The notes: generated from the letters alone by a model not told the origin. A stretch of 11,321 nucleotides of DNA from a virus (IMGVR_UViG_2700989272_000002:1-11321); one strand, 5' to 3'; shown: positions 1 through 11,321, counted from the first letter of the stretch. Numbers and translations are program-made.

Positions 1-249
1 GCTTTTTTCTCAGCTATCGTCCTCTTATTTTGCCGTTACATTTCTTTTTGCACTCTAATGATTAATTTACAATAATAATATCGGTAATTATTGAGTAATA
101 ATAAATTGATTATTGCAAATGTAATTTAATTCCATCTTCGCGTTATATTCCAATCTTTAATCTCCGCATGGAACAAGTTGCATGCGTGACTATATTAAGA
201 CAACTTATAACCACCAAAACATTTGCTTTGCAAGCAAAAACAGTGACCA

Positions 250-278
250 TTGACTCTAAGAAAATTCCGATCTATTGT
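250..278 (+). promoter_or_regulatory. candidate sigma70-type promoter (-35 TTGACT, 17-nt spacer, -10 TATTGT)
   Basis: TTGACT at 250-255, a 17-nt spacer, then TATTGT at 273-278, about 35 nt upstream of the ATG at 313. Such hexamer matches are common by chance in AT-rich DNA. Confidence 0.2.
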
Positions 279-312
279 TAGGATCATCAAAGTTACTTAA
301 CAGTATTCCGAA

Positions 313-414
313 ATGAAAATACAAAGCAAGCTAATTGTCTTATTAAACATTATCATTGCATTTATATTATTTGAGCTTTTAGCTCAAAAATTTGGTTTGA
401 GTACATTATTTTAA
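313..414 (+). CDS. hypothetical 33-aa hydrophobic peptide (MKIQSKLIVLLNIIIAFILFELLAQKFGLSTLF)
   Basis: ATG at 313 to TAA at 412-414, translated by hand. It codes two N-terminal lysines followed by an uninterrupted hydrophobic stretch, like a single-pass membrane peptide. No convincing Shine-Dalgarno precedes it, and AT-rich DNA yields Ile/Leu/Phe-rich ORFs by chance. Confidence 0.2.
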   Translation: MKIQSKLIVLLNIIIAFILFELLAQKFGLSTLF

Positions 415-563
415 AGCAAGATAAACAATATCGGGCACTCTAGTTTTTATAATTAACAATTAAACGTCCATAAAATGTTATTTACTTTTCTTCGCTATTG
501 TCATATCTTAATATTGTGGCTTACGCCACTCTACTTTCATCACATTTTGTACGTTTATGTACT

Positions 564-593
564 CGCCATGAAGCTCTTTCATGGCGATTTTTT
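564..593 (+). terminator. rho-independent terminator-like hairpin (plus strand)
   Basis: Perfect 9-bp stem, cgccatgaa (564-572) paired with ttcatggcg (578-586), with a 5-nt loop, followed by a TTTTTT run at 588-593. Confidence 0.5.
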
Positions 594-859
594 ATTCTTA
601 ATCCAAGAACATACTCCCTACCTATAGCAAAATCACTTTTTTAACAAAAGAATAACGTATTTAGGTAATCATTACGAATTTACCCTATAGGTGCTACTGG
701 CCATTCAATATCCGGTGCTACTGATGTATCAACACTGTTCAGCAACACCCGATATGTCTTCCATGCCGTCAGTAACGATGTCTCTTCCTCCGTTGCGATC
801 TCCAGCTCAGCAACAGTCTGAACGTACCAGGAACAGCCTCCTTCAGGGCTTGAAGGATA

Positions 860-3800
860 TCAATGTTCGCTTCCTGTTAACTGCCGGACAAGTGCAACCA
901 GTTCGCTTACCTGATTTTCCAGAGTGCTGATCCGGGTGCCTGCTGTTGCCAGATTTTGACGTAGCGTTGTGTTTTCCTCTTCCAGCGCGGTAACGCGATC
1001 ATCTGTTTCACGGGCGACCTGAACAAGTAAACCCGTCACGGCGGAGTAGTCAACATTAAGATAGCGAGTTTCTTCGCGTAGCTCGTTGCCGTCAACGGTC
1101 GGACCTTGCAACTCTTCACCATAATGAGTAAACGATCCCACAGCTTCTGGTATCGCCTCCATTACTTCCTGTGCAATAACGCCAGCATAAGGCATCCCGT
1201 TTTCCCTGAGCGTGTAGGTGTATCCGTTCATTTTACGGATTGCTTTCGTCGCGTCGCTGATAACGAGAATATCGTCTTTAAGGTCGCGGTCTGATGACTG
1301 ATTCAGCGTTGTGCAATTAATAGCGCCATTTACATCAAACAACTGGCCTGCTGACGTTTTTTGCGCATAAAACAGATACGCAGCAGACGTTCCAACCTCA
1401 AAAACGTTTTGTCGATCACTTGATCCCCATACTTTTGCGGCAAATGATAGTTCTGTATTACCTAAGTTCTGTAAAACAAAACGATTTCCAGTCCCTGTTT
1501 GTTTTGTAAGAGTTAAATCAACAGTTGAGTTAACCTCATCCTTGTTGATAGTGAGCGCCTGCGCTTTAGCCCCGTTAACAGCACCTGTTTTGAGTTGAAC
1601 CGCGCCGTCATTACCATTTAACAGTATCTCAGCTCCGCTAAAGAAATTTTTTAGCGACAGCATCTTACTTACGCCGACTGATGAACCCAACGCCCACGCG
1701 AGAGAATTACCGGTGCTATCAAACCCACGTACAAAGCAATCCATTTTGCTATAGTCTGACGTGCTTCCAAGGACATCAATTCGCCCTCCGCCAGATTTTA
1801 CCGGGTTAGATGTGGTTAATGACCTGACAGCAAGATCGGTAGATGAATTGAGATCGTCTACTGTTAGTAATTTCTTCCATTCCTGAATCGTCCCTGCCTC
1901 AATTGTTCTTCCCCAAAAACCGGAATTTCGACCTCCGAACTGTACAGCGTAATTTTTACTAAATTGAACATGTATGCCGCCGAGGTTCATAGAACCAGCG
2001 GGGCCGTTTGCACCGCCTGAGATCGGTTTAAATTTTTGTATATTATCGGTGTGTTGGGCGTTCCAGTCCTGACCTGTTATCGTTGATATACCTGATCCGG
2101 TTGCAATAAAGCCAGACGCTTTAAGATTTTGCACATCAAGTCTGTCGTTTGCAAAATTATATGAAATTGCGGTGCTGGTGCTTCCGGCATCATCATAATC
2201 GCTTTTATGAATAAACCAGTTTCCACCATTAGCAATGAGAGTATAAGTAGGCGTGTTAGCCGGGCGATCTGTTTCATTAAATCTTATTGCCGGGTTAGCA
2301 CTATTTATTTGTAAAGGTTTTTCGACCGTTGATTTCAGTATCGCACTATCTACAATTAAATTACCTTCTGAGGTAAAGTCTAGATATTTTGTAGCACCAG
2401 CTGAACCACCGTATGTAAATCTTATTGTTAATCGACCTTGCTCATTTGGAAAAGTCTGAACATACATATCAGCGGCAAGGCGCACAGTGTTATCATTTGC
2501 TAACAGTCTCGTATGGAGCATCCCGCCAGTAGTGTATGCGCCAGTAGAATCACTAGTCCTATCGAGAAATAGACTATTAAGCTGAGGGCTGTTATCCCTG
2601 CCTAATCCAAGATTAGTTCTGGCACCATCAATAGTTGCCGCGCCAGTGCCACCATGAGAAACATCAAGCGGTATCCATTTTTTTTGTGTATCGCTGTAAC
2701 AACCCCATGATGAGGCGGTTAAACCCAGGCGCATGGATTTATCATGGTTATATAACCATGTTTCGCTATTCAATTGGTCAAGACGGTCCACTTCATTTTT
2801 GCGAGCGTGGCGTGTCCATTGCGGGCCTATTGTCGGACTCCAGCGATAGGTATAAAGCGAGCGAGTAGTCCATCCCTGAAATACACCTGTATACGCTGGT
2901 GTTCCATCTACCTGACTAATAAAACCAGTAAGATTACCTTCGCCTGATGCAATAGACGGAAAACCTGTTGCGGAAGCAAAAATGCGCATAAAGCCAATAT
3001 AACCGGATGGATCACCGGAAATATCAGGACAATTGCGCGGTGATGATCCCAAACCGATGTTAGCACCAACAATACCCTGAGCATGGTTGCGATAATTAAG
3101 TGCGTCCGCCGCAGATTTCGCCGCGTTTGTTTCACTGGATTTAGCATTAGTTTCGCTGGCTTTAGCGTTTGTTTCGCTGCTCTTTGCTGCTGCCTCGCTA
3201 TTTTTCGCGTTGGTTTCTGATTTTTTGGCGGCTGTCGCGGAGTTTGCCGATGCAGTTTGTGAGTCTGCTGCCGCCTGTGCGCTGTTATCCGCATTCGTCT
3301 CAGACGTTTTTGCGGCCTTCGCGGAATTTCCTGCCGCCGTTGCCGAGGAAGCTGCGCTACTGGCGCTCAAGGATGCGTTCGTTTCTGATGATTTCGCTGC
3401 CTCTTTTGAGGCCGCCGCATCCCGGGCTGAGGTGGCAGCTTCTGACGCTTTCGTGGTCGCGGTGGATGCAGAAGTGGCGGCTGATTGTTCTGACGTTTTC
3501 GCCGCACCGGCACTGGTAGCTGCCACGCTTTTTGAGGACTCTGCAGCGGCAGCACTTTTTGAGGCTTCAGTGGCCTTTGTTGATGCCGTTCCTGCGCTGG
3601 AAGACGCTGACTGAGCCGACGAAGCGGCCTGTCCGGCTGACGTGCTGGCTGCACGTGCTGAGCCTGTAGCATCAGTCGCATGGGTTGCCGCCTCACGGGC
3701 TGATGTGCCGGCATCGCTGGCTGACTTCTTCGCGGCTGCCGTGTCCTGTGCCACTGCGGACGCGTTACGCGCCACCTCTTCCACCATCAGTTCAAAGCGG

Positions 3801-4111
3801 CGCAGTGCCTCCGGACGGGCATCATCCTCCGTCATGGCACCGAGAAAATCATTCAGCGTACCCGGTTGTGAGTCTTCATACACGGTGATGGTCCCGGCAT
3901 GCGATGGCGGGAAGCCTTCCACCAACAGAATAACGCTGTACTGACCGTACTCAACGTCCATGCTGTAACGCCCTGCTTCATCCGGATTTTCAGATGCCAC
4001 CGTGTTCACCACCACCGTGGTGCTGTTACGTTTTGCTTTCAGCTGGATTGTGCAGTTCTGTACCGGTTTACCTGCACCGTCTTTCAGTACACCTGAAATC
4101 TTTACTGCCAT
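860..4111 (-). CDS. stf: side tail fiber protein (lambda Stf-like N-terminus; Ala/Ser/Thr-rich repeat section; long distal region; C-terminal intramolecular-chaperone-like domain)
   Basis: Minus-strand ORF of 1085 codons. The N-terminus MAVKISGVLKDGAGKPVQNCTIQLKA... matches my recollection of lambda Stf. The ORF track starts at 4117, but that codon is GTG; the first ATG is at 4111 and gives the MAVKISG start, so I call the start there. Stop is TGA at 860-862. It sits directly after lom, as stf does in lambda. Confidence 0.85.
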   Translation of the reverse strand: MAVKISGVLKDGAGKPVQNCTIQLKAKRNSTTVVVNTVASENPDEAGRYSMDVEYGQYSVILLVEGFPPSHAGTITVYEDSQPGTLNDFLGAMTEDDARPEALRRFELMVEEVARNASAVAQDTAAAKKSASDAGTSAREAATHATDATGSARAASTSAGQAASSAQSASSSAGTASTKATEASKSAAAAESSKSVAATSAGAAKTSEQSAATSASTATTKASEAATSARDAAASKEAAKSSETNASLSASSAASSATAAGNSAKAAKTSETNADNSAQAAADSQTASANSATAAKKSETNAKNSEAAAKSSETNAKASETNAKSSETNAAKSAADALNYRNHAQGIVGANIGLGSSPRNCPDISGDPSGYIGFMRIFASATGFPSIASGEGNLTGFISQVDGTPAYTGVFQGWTTRSLYTYRWSPTIGPQWTRHARKNEVDRLDQLNSETWLYNHDKSMRLGLTASSWGCYSDTQKKWIPLDVSHGGTGAATIDGARTNLGLGRDNSPQLNSLFLDRTSDSTGAYTTGGMLHTRLLANDNTVRLAADMYVQTFPNEQGRLTIRFTYGGSAGATKYLDFTSEGNLIVDSAILKSTVEKPLQINSANPAIRFNETDRPANTPTYTLIANGGNWFIHKSDYDDAGSTSTAISYNFANDRLDVQNLKASGFIATGSGISTITGQDWNAQHTDNIQKFKPISGGANGPAGSMNLGGIHVQFSKNYAVQFGGRNSGFWGRTIEAGTIQEWKKLLTVDDLNSSTDLAVRSLTTSNPVKSGGGRIDVLGSTSDYSKMDCFVRGFDSTGNSLAWALGSSVGVSKMLSLKNFFSGAEILLNGNDGAVQLKTGAVNGAKAQALTINKDEVNSTVDLTLTKQTGTGNRFVLQNLGNTELSFAAKVWGSSDRQNVFEVGTSAAYLFYAQKTSAGQLFDVNGAINCTTLNQSSDRDLKDDILVISDATKAIRKMNGYTYTLRENGMPYAGVIAQEVMEAIPEAVGSFTHYGEELQGPTVDGNELREETRYLNVDYSAVTGLLVQVARETDDRVTALEEENTTLRQNLATAGTRISTLENQVSELVALVRQLTGSEH
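3119..3229 (-). repeat. about five tandem 21-nt repeats inside stf encoding SETNAK-type heptapeptides
   Basis: The motifs gtttc and tttagc/ctttgc/tttcgc recur at a 21-nt period (for example gtttc at 3129, 3150, 3171). The protein reads KKSETNAKNSEAAAKSSETNAKASETNAKSSETNAAK. They lie within a longer Ala/Ser/Thr-rich low-complexity region at about 3104-3766. Confidence 0.7.
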
Positions 4112-4120
4112 ATTCACCCC

Positions 4121-4149
4121 ACAAAAAAGCCCGCCTGAACCGGCGGGCT
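4121..4149 (-). terminator. rho-independent terminator-like hairpin between lom and stf (minus strand)
   Basis: On the minus strand, a 7-bp GC-rich stem (plus-strand gcccgcc 4129-4135 paired with ggcgggc 4142-4148, 6-nt loop) is followed by TTTTTT (complement of the A-run at 4123-4128). It lies 27 nt after the lom stop and about 10 nt before the stf ATG. Confidence 0.6.
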
Positions 4150-4175
4150 GTCATAACACTGTGTTACCTGGCTAA

Positions 4176-4775
4176 TCAGAACTTATAACCGACACCCACG
4201 ATGAAACCGTCAGTGCGCCAGTCGCCACTGCCGGAGCCTTCATAAGCAATATCAATGGCCACCGATTCGGTCGGGTTAAACTGCACGCCAGCTCCCCACG
4301 CCAGAGACGTGTTGCTGTGGCGACCGTCATCACTTCCGGTCAGCACATCGTGCGTTTTCCCCTTGTTGTCAGTTACGCGGAGATAATCCCCGGAGAAAGT
4401 CGACACACGGCTGTAAGCCACACCCGCCATCGCATACGCGCTGAACCATTCATTCACGCGTACAGACGGCCCCGCCATCACGCTGAACCAGCGGTTACGT
4501 AAGGAATCTTCATGCCAGCGGGTATCGCTGTAACGGGTCAGCTGGCGATTCTTGTCTCCTGCATAGCTGAATGACGTCACCAGCCCTAGTGTGTCCGTAA
4601 ACTCATAACGGTATTTCACGTTAATCCCGTTCAGATCATCGCTGCCGGGAACGTTCGTCGAGGCATGAAGATAGCCCGCGCTCAGCGTGGACTGATGTTC
4701 AGACGCCCATGCAGGCGCACCGGATACGGCCAGACAGATGGCTGCGGACAAAATGGCGGCATAAAGTTTACGCAT
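4176..4775 (-). CDS. lom: outer membrane beta-barrel protein Lom (Ail/Lom/PagC/OmpX family), phage moron
   Basis: 199-aa ORF with a signal-peptide-like N-terminus (MRKLYAAILSAAICLAVSGAPAWA). Its C-terminus, ...VDIAYEGSGSGDWRTDGFIVGVGYKF, matches my recollection of lambda Lom. A GAGAGG Shine-Dalgarno-like motif sits about 8 nt before the ATG. It occupies the lambda position between J and stf. Confidence 0.9.
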   Translation of the reverse strand: MRKLYAAILSAAICLAVSGAPAWASEHQSTLSAGYLHASTNVPGSDDLNGINVKYRYEFTDTLGLVTSFSYAGDKNRQLTRYSDTRWHEDSLRNRWFSVMAGPSVRVNEWFSAYAMAGVAYSRVSTFSGDYLRVTDNKGKTHDVLTGSDDGRHSNTSLAWGAGVQFNPTESVAIDIAYEGSGSGDWRTDGFIVGVGYKF

Positions 4776-4843: not shown

Positions 4844-7800
4844 TCAGCTAATCGTGATACCTGCTGTGGATTTCTTCATCACCACAACCAGCAAATCGCT
4901 GATACTGGCTGTGGGATACCAGTCATTTACCAGCCACGCTGATACCGAAAACTCCAGCGTCATGTGACCGCGACCAGCAGGCATATCAATAACACCTGTA
5001 TAAACCAGCGTATTATCCAGCGCGGTACGGTTATAAATTTCAGCACCGTTTTTCTTCACTATCAGGCGGCATGACGAATAAATATCGTTATTCTCCCGCT
5101 CATGTTTAGCGCCACGAAACGCCACCGCGGGAATAACAATCTGCCGGTCAAACGGCTGATCGTCATAAACCCTGACGGTAATGGTCCCTGATGGCCACCG
5201 CTCCGGTGCACGGGAGTCCCGGGGGAAAGCTTTGCCCACTGTTTTAACGAGATCGCCTTCAATCTGGTTCGCGGACAGTTTTCCCAGAACCCGACAGTTC
5301 TCGTTAATCGTGACATTGTTGAGCGTCCCGGCGTTCGCATTCACACTGCCACTGATATCCGCATTTTTAGCGGTCAGCTTTCCGTCCGGTGTCAGGGAAA
5401 ATACCGGTGGATTTCCACCACTGGTAATGGTGGGGGCCGTCAGGCGTTTGAGGAACACGTCGTTCATGAATATCTGGTTGCCCTGCGCCACAAACATCGG
5501 CGTTTCATTCCCGTTTGCCGGGTCAATAAACGCGATACGATTGGCGGCAACCAGAAACTGGCTCAGTTTGCCTTCCTCTGTATCCTCCATGCTGAGGCCA
5601 AGCCCCGCGACATAATGCTTACCGTCTTCGGTCTGCTCAATTTTGACGCCCCACATGGCGTTCCATTTATCGTTAGCGTCCTTCCACTCTTTCGAAAACT
5701 CCTCCAGTCTGCTGGCGTTATCCTCCGTCAGCTCGACTTTTTCCAGCAACTCCTTGCCGAGATGGGATTCGGTTATCTTGCCTTTGAAAAAATCCAGGTA
5801 ACCTTCCGCATCATCGCTCGCCCGACCGACGGCCTCCACAAATGCCGATTTGCCAACGGTGTTCACACTGCGAACGTAAAAATAATAATCATGGCCCGGT
5901 TTGATATTGATACTGGCGGCTATCCAGTACAGCCCCGTGCCAAGATAGCGGGCTGTGGTTTCAACCTGCCTGATATCGGTAATCCGCTTTTCCGAGAACC
6001 AGAACTCAAACTGTACCGTCGGATCATAAACCGCAAGATGCGGCGTGGCGGTTATCTGAAAATAGCCCGGCGTCAGCTCAATCCGCGACGGTGCTGCCGG
6101 TGCGGCGATCCGGAACGATACCGATGCCGGATCGCCCTGCTGTCCCCACGCATTTACCGCCCGGACCGTCAGCCTGTAGTTCCCCAGCGCCAGTTGCGTG
6201 AAGCGGTATGTGGTTTCCGTCGTCCTGGCCGTGCTGACCAGCCGCTCACTGCCGTCATCCGCTGCCACGGTCAGGCGAAGCATAAAGCTCACGCCCTTCA
6301 CCACCTTCGGCGTGTCCCATCGCGCCAGCACCTGATATTCCCCGCTGTCTGCGGTGACTTCGGCGGTCAGATGCTGCACTGCTGGCGGCGTGACACCATT
6401 CACCGTGCCGCTCTGGTCACCGTCAAAGTGCGCCCCGTTATCCACGATGGCTTCTTTCTCCGGTACATGCTGCACGGCAGTGATGGCATACGTGCCGTCG
6501 TCGTTCTCACGGATACTCACACAGCGGAACAGGCGCTGGCGCAGCGTCGGCAGCTTCAGCCCCCACACGCTGTACTCGGCAACGCCGTCAGGAACCCGGC
6601 TCACTTTCACCTTCACGCCGTCGGTGACGGACTGGACCTCCACGCTGACCGGATTGCCACTTCCGTCAACCAGGCTTATCAGCGTGGTGCCGGAGGATGG
6701 CAGCGTGATTTCACGGTCGAGCGTCAGCGTCCGGGTCTGGCTGTTCACCGCCAGCACGCGCCCGCCGGTGCTGATACCGGCATAGTCATCATCGCAGATT
6801 TCAATGACATCGCCCGGTACATGGCGAAGCCCTTCTGCGCCGACGCTGAAATCCACGGTCTGCGTCTCCAGCAGTTCTGTTTTAATCAGCCACAGCCCGG
6901 CGCGGTGCGCCTGCCCCCGACTGGTACAGCCAAACGCATCCATCTTCGTGACGTTACGACCGTAACGGGCAATGGCCTGCGAGTCCTCCACAAGCTCTGT
7001 TGCCGTCTCCCAGCCGTTATCCGGGTCAATCCAGTTCACTTCAACGGCATTATGGCGGTCTTTCAGGGCGCTGAAGCTGTAGCGGAATGGTGCGCCATCA
7101 TCCGGCATCACCACATTACTGCGGTTATAGGTCCACACCTTATCTGATGGTCGGTCCTGCACGAACGTCAGCGTCTGCCCGTTCCATACCGGCATACAGC
7201 GCATCGCCGAGCAGAAATCACTGAGCACATCCCACGCCTTGCGCTGTGTGGTCAGGTACGCATTACAGGTGATGCGCGGCTCCGTGCCGCCAAAGCCGTC
7301 CGGCACCGACTGGTCGCAGTACTGGCCGATGACATACAGCGCCCATTTATCCACATCCGCCGCACCAAGACGTTTCCCCATGCCGTAGCGCGGATGGGTC
7401 AGCATATCCCACAGACACCAGGCCATGTTGTTGCTGTATGCCGGTTTAAACGTTCCGTCCCAGATACCGCTGTATTGCCGCGTCTGCGGGTTATAATTCG
7501 ACGGCACCTGCAGAATACGCCCGCGAAGATGATAATTACGGCTCACCTGCTGGCTGCCGAACTGCTCCGAGTCCACCTGCACGCCGACCAGTGCCGTGTT
7601 CGGGTAGCACTGTTTCACATCGATAATTTCGGTGTATGACGACCAGAGCGTTTTGTTCTGCAGCTGGTCTGTGGTGCTGTCCGGCGTCATCCTGCGCATC
7701 CGGATATTAAACGGGCGCGGCGGCAGGTTATCCACCACCACCGAGGCCAGATACTGTGAAGTGGTTTTACCCTTAATGGTGATGTCTTTTTCCGTCACCC

Positions 7801-8239
7801 AGCCACCGTTACGTTGTATCTGAACCAGCAGGCGGACTTCCGATGGATTCCTGTCCCCCTTTGAGGTGGTTTCCACCAGTGCCTGCACACCGAAGGTAAA
7901 ACGCAGTCGGTCAATGTTTGCCGACGTGATGGTCCGGGTGATCGGCGTGTCGTATTTCACTTCCGTACCCAGCACCGTCTCGGAGCCGGAGGATTCAAAT
8001 CCCTCCGGCGGAGTCTGCTCCTGCTCACCAGCCCGGAACACCACCGTGACACCGGCGATGTTGGTATTCCCCTCACTGTCCAGCACCGGCGTACTGTTCA
8101 GCAGTACGCTTTTTAATCCATCCACCGGACCTTCAATCGGCCCTTCACTGATGGCGTCTATCACGCTCAGCATCTGGGATGATTTCAGGTTGTCCTTCGC
8201 TTCGCGCGGGGTATGCCCCTTACTGCTGCCTTTACCCAT
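4844..8239 (-). CDS. J: tail tip / central tail fiber protein J (host specificity protein)
   Basis: 1131-aa ORF. The N-terminus [20 protein letters not shown]... and most of the length match my recollection of lambda gpJ (1132 aa). A GAGGA Shine-Dalgarno-like motif immediately precedes the ATG. Stop is TGA at 4844-4846. The last ~150 residues look different from lambda. Confidence 0.95.
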
Positions 8240-8299: not shown

Positions 8300-8971
8300 T
8301 CAGCGACCAATCACCACAACCTGACCACCGTCCCCTTCGTCTGCCGTGCTGATTTCCTGAGATACCACCCGCGACCCCACGCGCATTTCACCGTACAGAA
8401 CGGGCAGAACATTGCCCTGGGCAACCATGTTATCCAGTGAGGAGAAATACGTGTTTTGTTTGCCGTTATCCGTTGTCTGTGTACGGGGAGTTCTGGCTTT
8501 CGGTGCCAGCATCTGCGCCACACCACCAAGTACCATACTGGCACCGAGAGAAAACAGGATGCCGGTCATACCACCGGCCCCAATGGCTGCCCCCCATGCT
8601 GCAAGGGTGGCTCCGGCGGTAAAGAATGATCCGGCAATGGCGGCTGCTCCCAGGACAATCTGGAATACGCCCCCTGACTTGGCCCCGGCGACTCTGGGAA
8701 CAATATGAATCACAGCGCCGTCAGGCAGAACCTCATGTAACTGCGCCGTCAATCCGGACGTGCTGACATCCCGCCCGGCAATCCGTACCTGATACCAGCC
8801 GTCGCTCAGTTTCTGACGAAACGCCGGGTTCTGCATGGCCAGCGCCCGGATGGCTTCAGCCCCCGTTTTCACACGAAGGTCGATGCGGCGGCCAAATCGT
8901 TGTAAATCCCCGTAAAGGCAGATGCGCGCCATGCCCGGTGACGCCAGAGGGAGTGTGTGCGTCGCTGCCAT
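8300..8971 (-). CDS. I: tail tip assembly protein I
   Basis: 223-aa ORF, MAATHTLPLASPGMARICLYGDLQRFGRRIDLRVKTGAEAIRALA..., matching my recollection of lambda gpI (223 aa). Its 5' end overlaps the 3' end of K by about 100 nt in another frame, as in lambda. Confidence 0.9.
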   Translation of the reverse strand: MAATHTLPLASPGMARICLYGDLQRFGRRIDLRVKTGAEAIRALAMQNPAFRQKLSDGWYQVRIAGRDVSTSGLTAQLHEVLPDGAVIHIVPRVAGAKSGGVFQIVLGAAAIAGSFFTAGATLAAWGAAIGAGGMTGILFSLGASMVLGGVAQMLAPKARTPRTQTTDNGKQNTYFSSLDNMVAQGNVLPVLYGEMRVGSRVVSQEISTADEGDGGQVVVIGR

Positions 8972-9612
8972 TTGTCGGTATACCTCTCTCGTTTGCTCAG
9001 TTGTTCAGGAATATGGTGCAGCAGCTCGCCGTCACCACAGTAAATGGCGGCATGATTCGGCACCGATGAACCAAAACAGCACAGCAGCACATCGCCCGGT
9101 TGTGCTGATGACAACGGCACCTGATACAGCCCTGTGGCCTCCAGATTATCCAGATAGAGATTCTGACCGTGACGCCACCAGTCATCCCCGCGATGAAAAT
9201 TCGGCATCTCAATCCCCGCCAGATGATAAGCATCCCGGAACAGCGTGTAACAGTCCGTCACCCCGTGCTCAAAGCGCCGCCCGGTGAGATGCGGCACACA
9301 GCGGAACTTATGAATCGCCCCCCGGCAGACCAGCAACCACGGCAAATCACTCTGCACCTGCAGCCGCCGGTCAGCCTCACTCAGCCAGGGCAGACCACCG
9401 GGGTGGCTGTGGACCAGCGCCACAATCTCACCCTGCATTTCTGCCTGCAGCCAGTCCTCCGGAGCCATCCGGAAATAATCCTCCGGCTCACCGGAAATAT
9501 TCACGCAGGGAAAATATCTTTCCCCCTCCGGCGTTCTCACCACGAAGCCGCACGACTCCGCTGGCGCACATCGCCGGGCGTGCGCCAGAATCGCTGATTC
9601 TGTCTCTGTCAT
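8869..9612 (-). CDS. K: tail tip assembly protein K (JAB/MPN-type metalloprotease motif plus NlpC/P60-like C-terminal half)
   Basis: The ORF contains a JAMM-type motif, HSHPGGLPWLSEAD (H-x-H-x7-S-x2-D), and downstream Cys/His residues typical of NlpC/P60 (..DCYTLF.., ..NHAAIY.., ..HHIPE). I call the start at the ATG at 9610-9612 (MTETESAIL...), 4 nt after the L stop. The lambda-annotated 199-aa form would start at the internal ATG at 9466-9468 (MAPEDW...). The track ORF runs to 9687, but that part overlaps L. Confidence 0.8.
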   Translation of the reverse strand: MTETESAILAHARRCAPAESCGFVVRTPEGERYFPCVNISGEPEDYFRMAPEDWLQAEMQGEIVALVHSHPGGLPWLSEADRRLQVQSDLPWLLVCRGAIHKFRCVPHLTGRRFEHGVTDCYTLFRDAYHLAGIEMPNFHRGDDWWRHGQNLYLDNLEATGLYQVPLSSAQPGDVLLCCFGSSVPNHAAIYCGDGELLHHIPEQLSKRERYTDKWQRRTHSLWRHRAWRASAFTGIYNDLAAASTFV

Positions 9613-9616
9613 GGGA

Positions 9617-10315
9617 TTACTGCGAAAGTTTGTTAATGGAAAGGAAGCCGCCAAAGTTGCCGACGTTATTGCGAAACTTACAGCCACTCAGGCATTTGCT
9701 GCATTTATCCTTCGTGATATCGGACGTTGGCTGGTCATATTCATCCGCGACCGCCGGACCGTGATAACCGCACTCATCGCCGCGATAGGTCCAGGTGCAG
9801 GTGTTGGCCAGCATGATACGTCCCGGAAAAACAGCGCCGTCCGTTTCCGTCGGCGTGGACAGTACAAAAGAGGCACTCACCGCGCTCAGTTCGCTGCACT
9901 GCTCAATGCGCCAGCGGCTGATCACCTCCTGCTCCGGATCGGCGTCGCTGTTTCCGTTGACGAAGTTCACCGCATCCAGAAAACGGGCGTAAACCTTACG
10001 CCGGACCACCGTTCCGCCGACCAGACTCTGCAGATCTTCCGCCATCCCGGTGACCATACCGTACAGGTTAGAAACCGTCAGCGTGGGGCGCGTACTGGTG
10101 CCTTTGCCATTCAGTTCAAAACCACTCCCCTGAATGGGATACGGCTGATACTGTCGCCCCTGCCAGGTGACCGGCTCACCTTTTTCGTTCTGCTCATTAC
10201 AGAAAAAATAACGTTCTCCACCGACCTCTGTCAGGTCGATTTCCCAGAGCACCACGCTGGCCGACTGCTCCGCACGGGTGCATTCATTCAGTGTTTCCTG
10301 CCGGATATCCTGCAT
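9617..10315 (-). CDS. L: tail tip protein L (Cys-rich C-terminus consistent with the reported Fe-S cluster site)
   Basis: 232-aa ORF, MQDIRQETLNECTRAEQSASVVLWEIDLTEVGGERYFFCNEQ..., matching my recollection of lambda gpL (232 aa). The C-terminal ~60 aa carry five Cys (..CTWTYRGDECGYHG..KDKCSKCLSGCKF..). The start ATG shares one base with the M stop codon. Confidence 0.9.
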   Translation of the reverse strand: MQDIRQETLNECTRAEQSASVVLWEIDLTEVGGERYFFCNEQNEKGEPVTWQGRQYQPYPIQGSGFELNGKGTSTRPTLTVSNLYGMVTGMAEDLQSLVGGTVVRRKVYARFLDAVNFVNGNSDADPEQEVISRWRIEQCSELSAVSASFVLSTPTETDGAVFPGRIMLANTCTWTYRGDECGYHGPAVADEYDQPTSDITKDKCSKCLSGCKFRNNVGNFGGFLSINKLSQ

Positions 10316-10644
10316 CAGTTCACCACCTGTTCAAACTCTGCGCTGAACTCAACACGCAGCATACTGACCCGCGACGACCATTTTGCGCAGGTCACCTTTA
10401 TCTGCCGCCACTCATAAGGCGGCGTCCACAGAAAGGCTTTCCAGCCCCCGTGCTCTTCCAGAAACGACTCCAGTACCGTGGCCTCCTCACGGGGGACAGA
10501 AAGCGTCACGCTGTACGTTTTCAGGTTGGCATTCAGCCCGGCAGGCGCTCGCTGGGAATAGCCATCACCAAAGCGCACCTTTCTTACAGAAGGGGCCGAA
10601 GCCACATCCATACCGGGTTTCACTTTCCAGCGGAAGGTTTTCAT
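10315..10644 (-). CDS. M: tail tip protein M
   Basis: 109-aa ORF, the same length as lambda gpM. Its ATG (10642-10644) overlaps the H stop TGA (10641-10643) as ATGA, which suggests translational coupling. Its position between H and L matches lambda. Confidence 0.9.
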   Translation of the reverse strand: MKTFRWKVKPGMDVASAPSVRKVRFGDGYSQRAPAGLNANLKTYSVTLSVPREEATVLESFLEEHGGWKAFLWTPPYEWRQIKVTCAKWSSRVSMLRVEFSAEFEQVVN

Positions 10645-11321
10645 CGTCCACCTCCGGAGAACAGGCCACCATCACGCATCTGTGTCTGAATTTCATCACG
10701 GGCACCCTTGCGGGCCATGTCATACACCGCCTTCAGAGCAGCCGGACCTATCTGCCCGTTCGTGCCGTCGTTGTTAATCACCACATGGTTATTCTGCTCA
10801 AACGTCCCGGACACCTGCGACCGGCTGTCAGCCAGACTGCCCGGTGTACCGACATAACCACCGGTGGCATAGCCGCGCATCAGCCGGTAGAGATTCCCCA
10901 CGCCAATCCGGCTGGTTGCCTCCTTCGTGAAGACAAATTCACCACGGTGAACAATCCCCGCTGGCTCATATTTGCCGCCGGTTCCCGTAAATCCTCCGGT
11001 TGCAAAATGGAATTTCGCCGCAGCGGCCTGAATGGCTGTACCGCCTGATGCGGATGCGCCGCCACCAACAGCCCCGCCAATGGCGCTGCCGATACTCCCG
11101 ACAATCCCCACCATTGCCTGCTTAAGCAGAATTTCTGTCATCATGGACAGCACGGAACGGGTGAAGCTGCGCCAGTTCTGCTCACTGCCGGTCAGCATCG
11201 CTGCCATATTCTGTGCAATACCATCAAAGGTCTGCGTGGCTGCACTTTTTACCTGCGACATACTGTCCGTGGCGCTCTCTTCCCACTCACTCCAGCCGGA
11301 CTTCAGGCCTGCCATCCAGCT
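10641..11321 (-). CDS. H: tail tape measure protein H, C-terminal fragment (5' end lies beyond the window edge)
   Basis: The reading frame is open through the window end (codons at 11316-11321 continue the frame upstream of the listed Met). The Gly-rich C-terminal region and the position immediately upstream of M, with an ATGA stop/start overlap, fit lambda gpH. Confidence 0.85.
   Translation of the reverse strand, partial: SWMAGLKSGWSEWEESATDSMSQVKSAATQTFDGIAQNMAAMLTGSEQNWRSFTRSVLSMMTEILLKQAMVGIVGSIGSAIGGAVGGGASASGGTAIQAAAAKFHFATGGFTGTGGKYEPAGIVHRGEFVFTKEATSRIGVGNLYRLMRGYATGGYVGTPGSLADSRSQVSGTFEQNNHVVINNDGTNGQIGPAALKAVYDMARKGARDEIQTQMRDGGLFSGGGR

Follow-up and report, generated by a model that had tools for sequence, protein, structure and literature searches.

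A lambda-type side tail fiber with a C-terminal S74 chaperone domain and a tfa remnant downstream

Introduction

The range of strains to which a phage, or a delivery particle derived from one, can attach is set by its fiber tips. In lambda, the side tail fiber (Stf) relies on a separate tail fiber assembly protein, Tfa. The window analyzed here, a stretch of 11,321 nucleotides from a viral contig (IMGVR_UViG_2700989272_000002), encodes a Stf that a first-pass annotation of the sequence took for a lambda attachment domain fused to a fiber that folds itself and sheds its C terminus, with no tfa gene behind it. Literature searches turned up no paper that deals specifically with S74 domains in lambdoid Stf, and no experiment was found on the window's Stf or on any lambdoid Stf of the S74 type.

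Results

Layout of the stf locus

On its minus strand, the window covers the distal end of a block of lambda-type tail genes (Table 1). As expected of a lambda-type Stf, a phage_tail_N anchor is encoded after J and lom. The open reading frame (ORF) at 860..4117 on the minus strand has 1,085 codons and opens VNMAVKISG, with a GTG at 4117. The start of stf is likely the ATG at 4111, giving 1,083 residues, because lambda Stf and the lambda tail fiber chain 9e7m open MAVKISG; the in-frame GTG upstream is probably not the start. Residue numbers in this text count from the ATG, and Pfam coordinates, which count from the GTG, run two higher (Ser940 is Ser942 and Lys945 is Lys947).

Table 1. Features of the stf locus and its neighbors, in window coordinates
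Feature	Position	Strand	Basis or remark
Tape measure gene, C-terminal end	10641-11315	-	
M	10315-10644	-	
L	9617-10315	-	
K-like gene	8869-9687	-	
I	8300-8971	-	
J	4844-8239	-	
lom	4176-4775	-	
stf, side tail fiber gene, 1,083 aa	860..4111	-	ATG at 4111, stop codon at 860-862; ORF list and translation
phage_tail_N attachment domain, lambda-type, aa 1-134	3710..4111	-	Pfam PF08400, E = 1.2e-71
Shaft rich in Ala/Ser/Thr, aa 135-337	3101..3709	-	lambda-like until about aa 284, SETNAK-type repeats beyond
Distal fiber, presumed receptor-binding modules, aa 338-939	1295..3100	-	Bas20 similarity, mosaic modules, phrog_6578
Peptidase_S74 chaperone domain, aa 940-1083 (144 aa, 15.9 kDa)	863..1294	-	predicted release by a cut before Ser940
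Ser940 codon, predicted nucleophile and scissile Ser	1292..1294	-	first residue of the Pfam match; aligns with T5 pb1 Ser1264
Lys945 codon, predicted general base	1277..1279	-	aligns with T5 pb1 Lys1269; at least 90% conserved in 32 homologs
Long C-terminal helix of the chaperone domain, aa 1022-1079	875..1048	-	AlphaFold2 fragment positions 135-192 of 196, pLDDT 93-97
48-nt spacer, stf stop codon to annotated tfa remnant	812..859	-	nearly invariant across loci with an S74 tip and a stub
tfa 3' remnant, last ~45 codons and stop of the tail fiber assembly gene	680..823	-	Caudo_TAP, tblastn, PHROG, RefSeq; in the stf frame

The N-terminal layout is identical to that of lambda Stf. Residues 1 to 94 match the lambda tail fiber chain (PDB 9e7m, E = 7.8e-52), and residues 1 to 277 are 84% identical to lambda (orf-401). 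No similarity between lambda Stf and the window's fiber was found beyond about residue 330, and the window's stf has neither a lambda-like distal half nor a cognate tfa downstream. The phrog_6578 "tail fiber protein" profile, a full-length PHROGs family, scores 1116 bits on Stf, and the NCBIfam search gave no meaningful family for the fiber or for the tfa remnant.

A 21-nt tandem repeat lies within the shaft (3129-3179), and the GC content drops from 56 to 62% at 3150-4111 to 38 to 47% distal of about 3100 and to about 30% downstream of 680. The shaft appears to be the left-hand boundary of the exchanged distal part. The GC break at this boundary was counted toward the reading of the tfa remnant as a recombination scar and homology arm (see below).

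The C-terminal chaperone domain

The Pfam profile Peptidase_S74 (PF13884) matched residues 940 to 991 over profile positions 1 to 57 of 58 (E = 2.3e-13; 50.7 bits against a gathering cutoff of 22), with the Ser of SDRDLK as the first matched residue. The three residues Ser, Asp, and Lys of SDxxxK do not vary in an alignment including T5 pb1. Across 32 homologs, conservation is at least 90% both for the SD...K motif and for a YTY...AGVIAQE...P block; these homologs are protein-database matches, all at most 342 aa long and many of them partial, that served only for conservation and for the structure-prediction alignment.

In the AlphaFold2 model (pLDDT 84), which covers the C-terminal 196 residues, a region rich in beta structure and a small alpha/beta region precede a terminal helix of 58 residues. 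The helix presumably forms a trimeric coiled coil; its matches to coiled-coil profiles in the Pfam search were weak. When the modeled C terminus was used in a fold search, solved chaperone domains of the S74 type were the best matches. A plain PDB sequence search matched only the lambda N terminus and the chaperone region of S16 gp37 and did not reach T5 pb1 or endoNF, whereas the fold search did. The domain therefore resembles S74 members in its C-terminal position, in an alpha/beta part followed by a long helix, and in its fold.

These results bear out most of the first-pass annotation, which had likened the last ~144 residues to an S74-type chaperone, now recovered by both profile and fold, attached to a lambda-Stf N-terminal domain, a fusion upheld by profile, alignment, and fold evidence. 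The Ser and Lys codons lie where it had placed them and align with Ser1264 and Lys1269 of T5 pb1. Its Y-x-Y...GVIAQEV...PE block corresponds to the conserved block above, its terminal helix is modeled as one long helix over the last ~58 residues (pLDDT 93 to 97), and its estimate of ~16 kDa for the released fragment agrees with the 15.9 kDa computed from the sequence for 144 residues. It had also likened the C terminus to T5-type fibers, which holds for the chaperone domain, where 27% of the final 200 aa are identical, but not for the tip, where no sequence similarity was detected.

By homology, Stf is predicted to cleave itself between Ser939 and Ser940, into a mature fiber of 939 aa (97.6 kDa) and the 144-aa fragment. 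In T5 pb1, Arg1250 of a neighboring subunit senses correct folding, and Asp1239 and Thr1263 are the oxyanion-hole residues. The P1 residue here is Ser939, versus Thr in T5 pb1 (Thr1263). The region of Arg1250 and Asp1239 is gapped in the alignment, and the Arg1250 column falls in a gap of the window's Stf, a point that counts against the main reading given below.

The remnant of tfa

Positions 859 to 1, downstream of stf, had been described as free of any tfa gene. This is correct as far as an intact gene is concerned, but the stretch is not empty, as it holds a stub of tfa at 680-823. The Caudo_TAP profile matched the stub at positions 87 to 130 of 131, its C-terminal 44 positions (E = 5.7e-18). 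In tblastn, the stub (683-823) corresponded to residues 147 to 193 of lambda Tfa/TfaQ with 74 to 77% identity (E = 1e-18; lambda Tfa, 74%), and this was the only part of Tfa that the lambda Tfa/TfaQ search found in the window. Several PHROG tail fiber assembly families also match it. The stub retains about 45 of the 194 Tfa codons; the N-terminal three-quarters of Tfa, including the fiber-binding domain, are missing. It has no ATG or ribosome-binding site and is not a full-length, two-domain Tfa. RefSeq labels the stub in related genomes a partial pseudogene, [quoted passage not shown] It reads open in the stf frame directly after the TGA.

We also looked for an intact tfa in near-identical complete genomes, namely, Escherichia coli IAI1 (100% identical over 600-1300) and strain Res13-Lact-EB12-05 (98.6% over 1-4200). 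None lies downstream there; an AraC-family regulator, insertion sequence (IS) fragments, and ybhB/bioA come next. These genes mark the border of a prophage at the lambda attachment region. Compared with tfaQ, the window's stub has eight nonsynonymous and six synonymous codon differences, some at conserved Tfa positions. The stub reads as the remnant of an earlier Tfa-dependent tip that has since been replaced, and it is the best evidence for such a replacement.

A mosaic junction behind stf

We compared the stop-codon junction in 58 loci. Clustering gave 8 groups of fiber tips, 4 of S74 sequences (at a 93% threshold), and 16 of downstream flanks, and the stubs end in at least 10 different ways. 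In the S74-type loci examined, a nearly invariant block runs from the chaperone end through the TGA and the 48-nt spacer into the stub, for ~25 nt. Beyond these ~25 nt, the loci split into different tfa 3' types, with endings such as ...WPALP*, ...WPVAPIG*, ...WPAVPVME*, ...WPANPVRE*, ...WPEEPDTV*, ...VWPPPSKR*, and others. The type of stub end follows the downstream flank, whereas the mid-stub sequence assorts freely. The stub is open to a tfa-type stop in 55 of the 58 loci; two of the exceptions are at a contig end, and one (L024) is frameshifted.

The Qin site beside ydfJ gives a direct comparison: one strain has an intact stf and a full tfaQ there, and another has an S74 tip and the stub, with a downstream flank of identical type. 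The junction motif was found in 49 IMG/VR viral contigs but not in any GTDB species-representative genome, so the pattern described here is that of E. coli-type prophages.

Since the same junction is joined to many tips, tfa ends, and flanks, the stub appears to be a recombination scar. The pattern is that expected from crossovers inside the conserved ~130-nt 3' end of tfa, and the stub probably acts as the right-hand homology arm for fiber-tip swapping.

We also considered whether the terminal helix (...ENQVSELVALV.QLTGSE) always travels with the stub. This was rejected on account of a distant S74 fiber (P0094) without a stub: in this other E. coli prophage (locus L013), the S74 fiber with the shared helix is followed by a terminator and chromosomal genes.

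Related fibers

The architecture is known, common, and already annotated in RefSeq, where WP_195714419.1, [quoted passage not shown] is 98.3% identical to the window's Stf over its full length. The S74 end with the stub occurs in 801 of 5,426 complete E. coli genomes (~15%; at least 80% query coverage), and the same type of S74 domain is present in 858 phage records, including T5-like, rV5-like, and T4-like phages and Drexlerviridae. The first-pass annotation had implied that the arrangement is unusual, which does not fit with a protein type that RefSeq names, that about 15% of complete E. coli genomes carry, and that cultured phages share.

Phages mEp460, Ayreon, and PhiR70_1 have the same lom-stf-stub layout and the same stop-codon junction as the window. 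Their fibers and that of IAI1 have common ends and a shuffled middle (about aa 330 to 900), with lengths of 830 to 1,252 aa. The mEp460 Stf, for example, is 92.5% identical over aa 1 to 501 and 89.1% over aa 662 to 1083, with no alignment between. The lateral tail fiber of the Nonagvirus FritzHoffmann (Bas20) has the same Pfam architecture, phage_tail_N plus Peptidase_S74, and 69 to 71% amino acid identity over aa 311 to 501 and 662 to 1056 (79% nucleotide identity). It differs in its anchor (35% identical), in an unrelated module at aa 502 to 661, and in having no stub downstream, and Bas20 is virulent rather than temperate. No Tfa is annotated in Bas20, and lambda Tfa/TfaQ had no significant match in its first 30 kb, which hold the structural genes.

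T5 pb1 (PDB 4uw7 and 4uw8) shares a similar chaperone domain, with 27% identity over the last ~200 aa, whereas its bullet-shaped tip has no detectable sequence similarity to the window's tip. The chaperone of the K1F endosialidase (PDB 3gw6), the founding member of peptidase family S74, is 12% identical in a structural alignment; it follows a tailspike with an enzymatic sialidase domain, in contrast to the long fiber here. Stf and Tfa of lambda (Ur-lambda's side tail fibers) are encoded at the same position after J and lom, and the stub corresponds to Tfa residues 147 to 193 (74%), but the lambda distal half and the dependence on the 194-aa Tfa have been replaced in the window by unrelated modules and the S74 domain. 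The closest engineered design is the lambda-K1F STF chimera (Brodel et al. 2024, PMC11338833), a functional fusion of the lambda Stf N terminus to a spike with an S74 chaperone. The chimera is man-made and fused at Stf residue 528, while the natural fiber switches at about residues 285 to 340.

Discussion

The explanation that we consider likely as a whole is that the window encodes a lambda-type Stf anchor joined to a self-folding distal fiber with its own S74 chaperone, with the tfa stub as a relic and homology arm. It combines direct observations (the domains recognized, the conservation of key residues, the match in fold, the lack of an intact tfa, and the mosaicism of the stub) with a predicted cleavage, a predicted independence from Tfa, and a putative role in recombination. 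The first ~135 residues of Stf, the lambda anchor, would dock onto the tail tip, and the distal modules beyond the shaft would presumably bind a surface glycan. By analogy with the K1F endosialidase and T5 pb1, three S74 domains would seed the assembly of the beta-rich tip before them into a folded trimer. A correctly folded tip would be followed by a cut at the Ser939-Ser940 bond, made by Ser940 itself with Lys945 as its activator; the cut would free the 15.9-kDa chaperone fragment and leave the 939-aa mature fiber. A fiber with its own S74 chaperone would make a separate Tfa protein unnecessary, and we infer that the window's Stf folds independently of Tfa. The stub and the conserved chaperone domain would offer homology for recombination, by which this tip type may have spread into many prophage backbones; lambdoid prophages share a conserved tfa 3' end, which is why the stub could still supply such homology.

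Several of these steps have precedents. In T5 pb1, Ser1264 and Lys1269 have a shown or proposed role in self-cleavage, an S1264A mutant is no longer cleaved, and the protein needs no helper to fold and cleave itself in E. coli (PMC4690869). The S74 domain is absent from cryo-electron microscopy maps of assembled virion fibers (PMC12143355). The engineered lambda-Stf(1-528)-K1F fusion works on lambda particles (PMC11338833), and mEp460 completes both lytic and lysogenic cycles (PMC9836094). Homologous recombination between lambda and Rac inside tfa has been shown experimentally (PMC3945230).

The fiber could instead be a decaying gene of a defective prophage, in which the loss of tfa has left a fiber that does not fold and the S74 similarity is a dead relic. 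Many related loci do lie in degraded prophages, such as a copy at the Qin site with truncated stf, lom, and J; other copies are disrupted by IS elements, and the stub of L024 is frameshifted. However, the window's stf is an uninterrupted ORF of 1,083 codons with lom, J, I, K, L, and M intact upstream, conservation extends to the catalytic Ser and Lys and to the core motifs, and plaque-forming phages carry the same architecture, so that decay seems improbable to us. Another possibility is that the fiber still requires Tfa, provided in trans by another prophage, and that the S74 domain merely assists. E. coli genomes usually have several lambdoid prophages bearing an intact tfa; the stf/lom region matches a median of 2 and a maximum of 14 places per genome, and intact tfaQ is present in other strains. 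Against this stands the window's tip, which is unrelated to lambda's, while Tfa is tip specific: North et al. reportedly described in 2019 that Tfa recognizes its cognate fiber tip via a variable N-terminal domain. Homologous S74 fibers moreover work in phages whose structural-gene region lacks any gene annotated as tfa or resembling lambda Tfa (Bas20), and T5 pb1 folds alone in E. coli. We therefore regard a need for Tfa in trans as very unlikely.

The open frame of the stub suggested a further alternative, namely, that the stub is functional, either as an appendage to Stf made by read-through of the TGA or as a small peptide with the oligomerization segment of Tfa. Its position in the stf frame immediately after the TGA and its open frame up to a tfa-type stop in nearly all of the loci speak for it. 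Yet all loci share one ancestral junction, so the frame is inherited and the 58 loci are not independent; common ancestry, together with repeated recombination with intact tfa, accounts for the shared and open frame. A scar could account for an open, in-frame stub in this way, although that account does not in itself argue against a function. Also against it are the codon differences from tfaQ, with nonsynonymous changes outnumbering synonymous ones (8 versus 6) and hitting conserved Tfa positions, and the lack of both a start codon and a recognizable read-through context. The stub also seems dispensable for S74 fibers, because Bas20 and L013 have none and one copy is frameshifted. We give a functional stub only a slight chance. 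The specific version in which occasional read-through of the TGA adds the Tfa oligomerization segment to the S74 end, yielding a hybrid of two fiber-folding systems, was judged unlikely on the same codon differences, stubless fibers, and frameshifted copy, and we hold it to be extremely improbable.

A tip with a built-in chaperone would move without a partner gene and would thus be easy to transplant, and engineers already use lambda-K1F fusions. The locus described here is a natural counterpart of that design and is common in E. coli prophages. What our comparison adds is modest: the tfa 3' leftover and the chaperone domain behave as a shared right-hand homology arm, which would let self-folding tips, including modules common to virulent phages, replace Tfa-dependent ones. 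Such an arm helps explain the mosaicism of stf loci and extends the known recombination within tfa, with no new mechanism.

Module sharing within the fiber gene

Over about 2 kb (996-3058, minus strand), the distal fiber sequence has 79% DNA identity to the lateral tail fiber gene of FritzHoffmann (Bas20; L009, 2922-6104). FritzHoffmann is a virulent Nonagvirus, and the match is a case of module sharing at the fiber locus between temperate and virulent coliphages. The module spanning residues 502 to 661 is present in the related Stf of phage PhiR70_1 but missing from the fibers of Bas20 and mEp460, although both have the two modules flanking it, and it appears to be a cassette that can be exchanged on its own. 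Where the similarity to lambda Stf stops, there is a tandem repeat encoding SETNAK-type heptads. The Ala/Ser-rich region around it varies in length among homologs and may be the left-hand crossover zone in tip exchange.

Features of the fiber gene and its downstream flank
Feature	Position (nt)	Strand	Remarks
Low-GC stretch	1-680		About 30% GC; without convincing ORF
Hairpin	563-587	+	Strong, 11 pairs, then TTTTTT; terminator-like
tfa remnant and spacer	680-859	-	In the stf frame, immediately 3' of the TGA stop
Internal fiber module	2129-2608	-	aa 502-661
Ala/Ser-rich region	3101-3709	-	Surrounds the 21-nt repeat
21-nt tandem repeat	3129-3179	-	2.4 copies

At the other end of the fiber is the Peptidase_S74 (S74) domain. 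In the protein-database matches P0066, P0031/P0033, and P0039, the same S74 end is joined to unrelated domains (NlpC/P60, Phage_Tail_Tip, or terminase GpA), but these fusions may be chimeras that gene calling or assembly created where prophages join other sequence.

The tfa remnant and its flank

Behind the stf stop codon, the open frame of the tfa remnant reaches a tfa-type stop in 55 of the 58 loci sharing this junction; two of the others end at a contig edge before the stop, and one, the stub copy on the IMG/VR contig L024, is frameshifted. We consider translation of the remnant through read-through of the stf TGA unlikely. The open frame probably reflects inheritance from a single ancestral junction together with renewal by recombination. 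The stub is absent altogether at L013 (Escherichia coli GCA_020346045.1 contig, 780-1140), which encodes a distant S74 fiber with 33% identity to the last 196 residues of the window's fiber and with the same terminal ...ENQVSELVALVKQLTGSE helix.

In the AT-rich flank, positions 600-680, adjoining the stub, are nearly identical to the sequence that follows an intact tfaQ where the Qin prophage is inserted (ydfJ side, L005/L007). The window's prophage occupies the lambda attachment region, on the ybhB side, and the tfaQ-type end with at least its adjacent flank is therefore present in two different prophage locations. For the stf strand, terminator prediction gave no counterpart to the plus-strand hairpin, which looks like a terminator of transcription heading towards stf from the AT-rich side.
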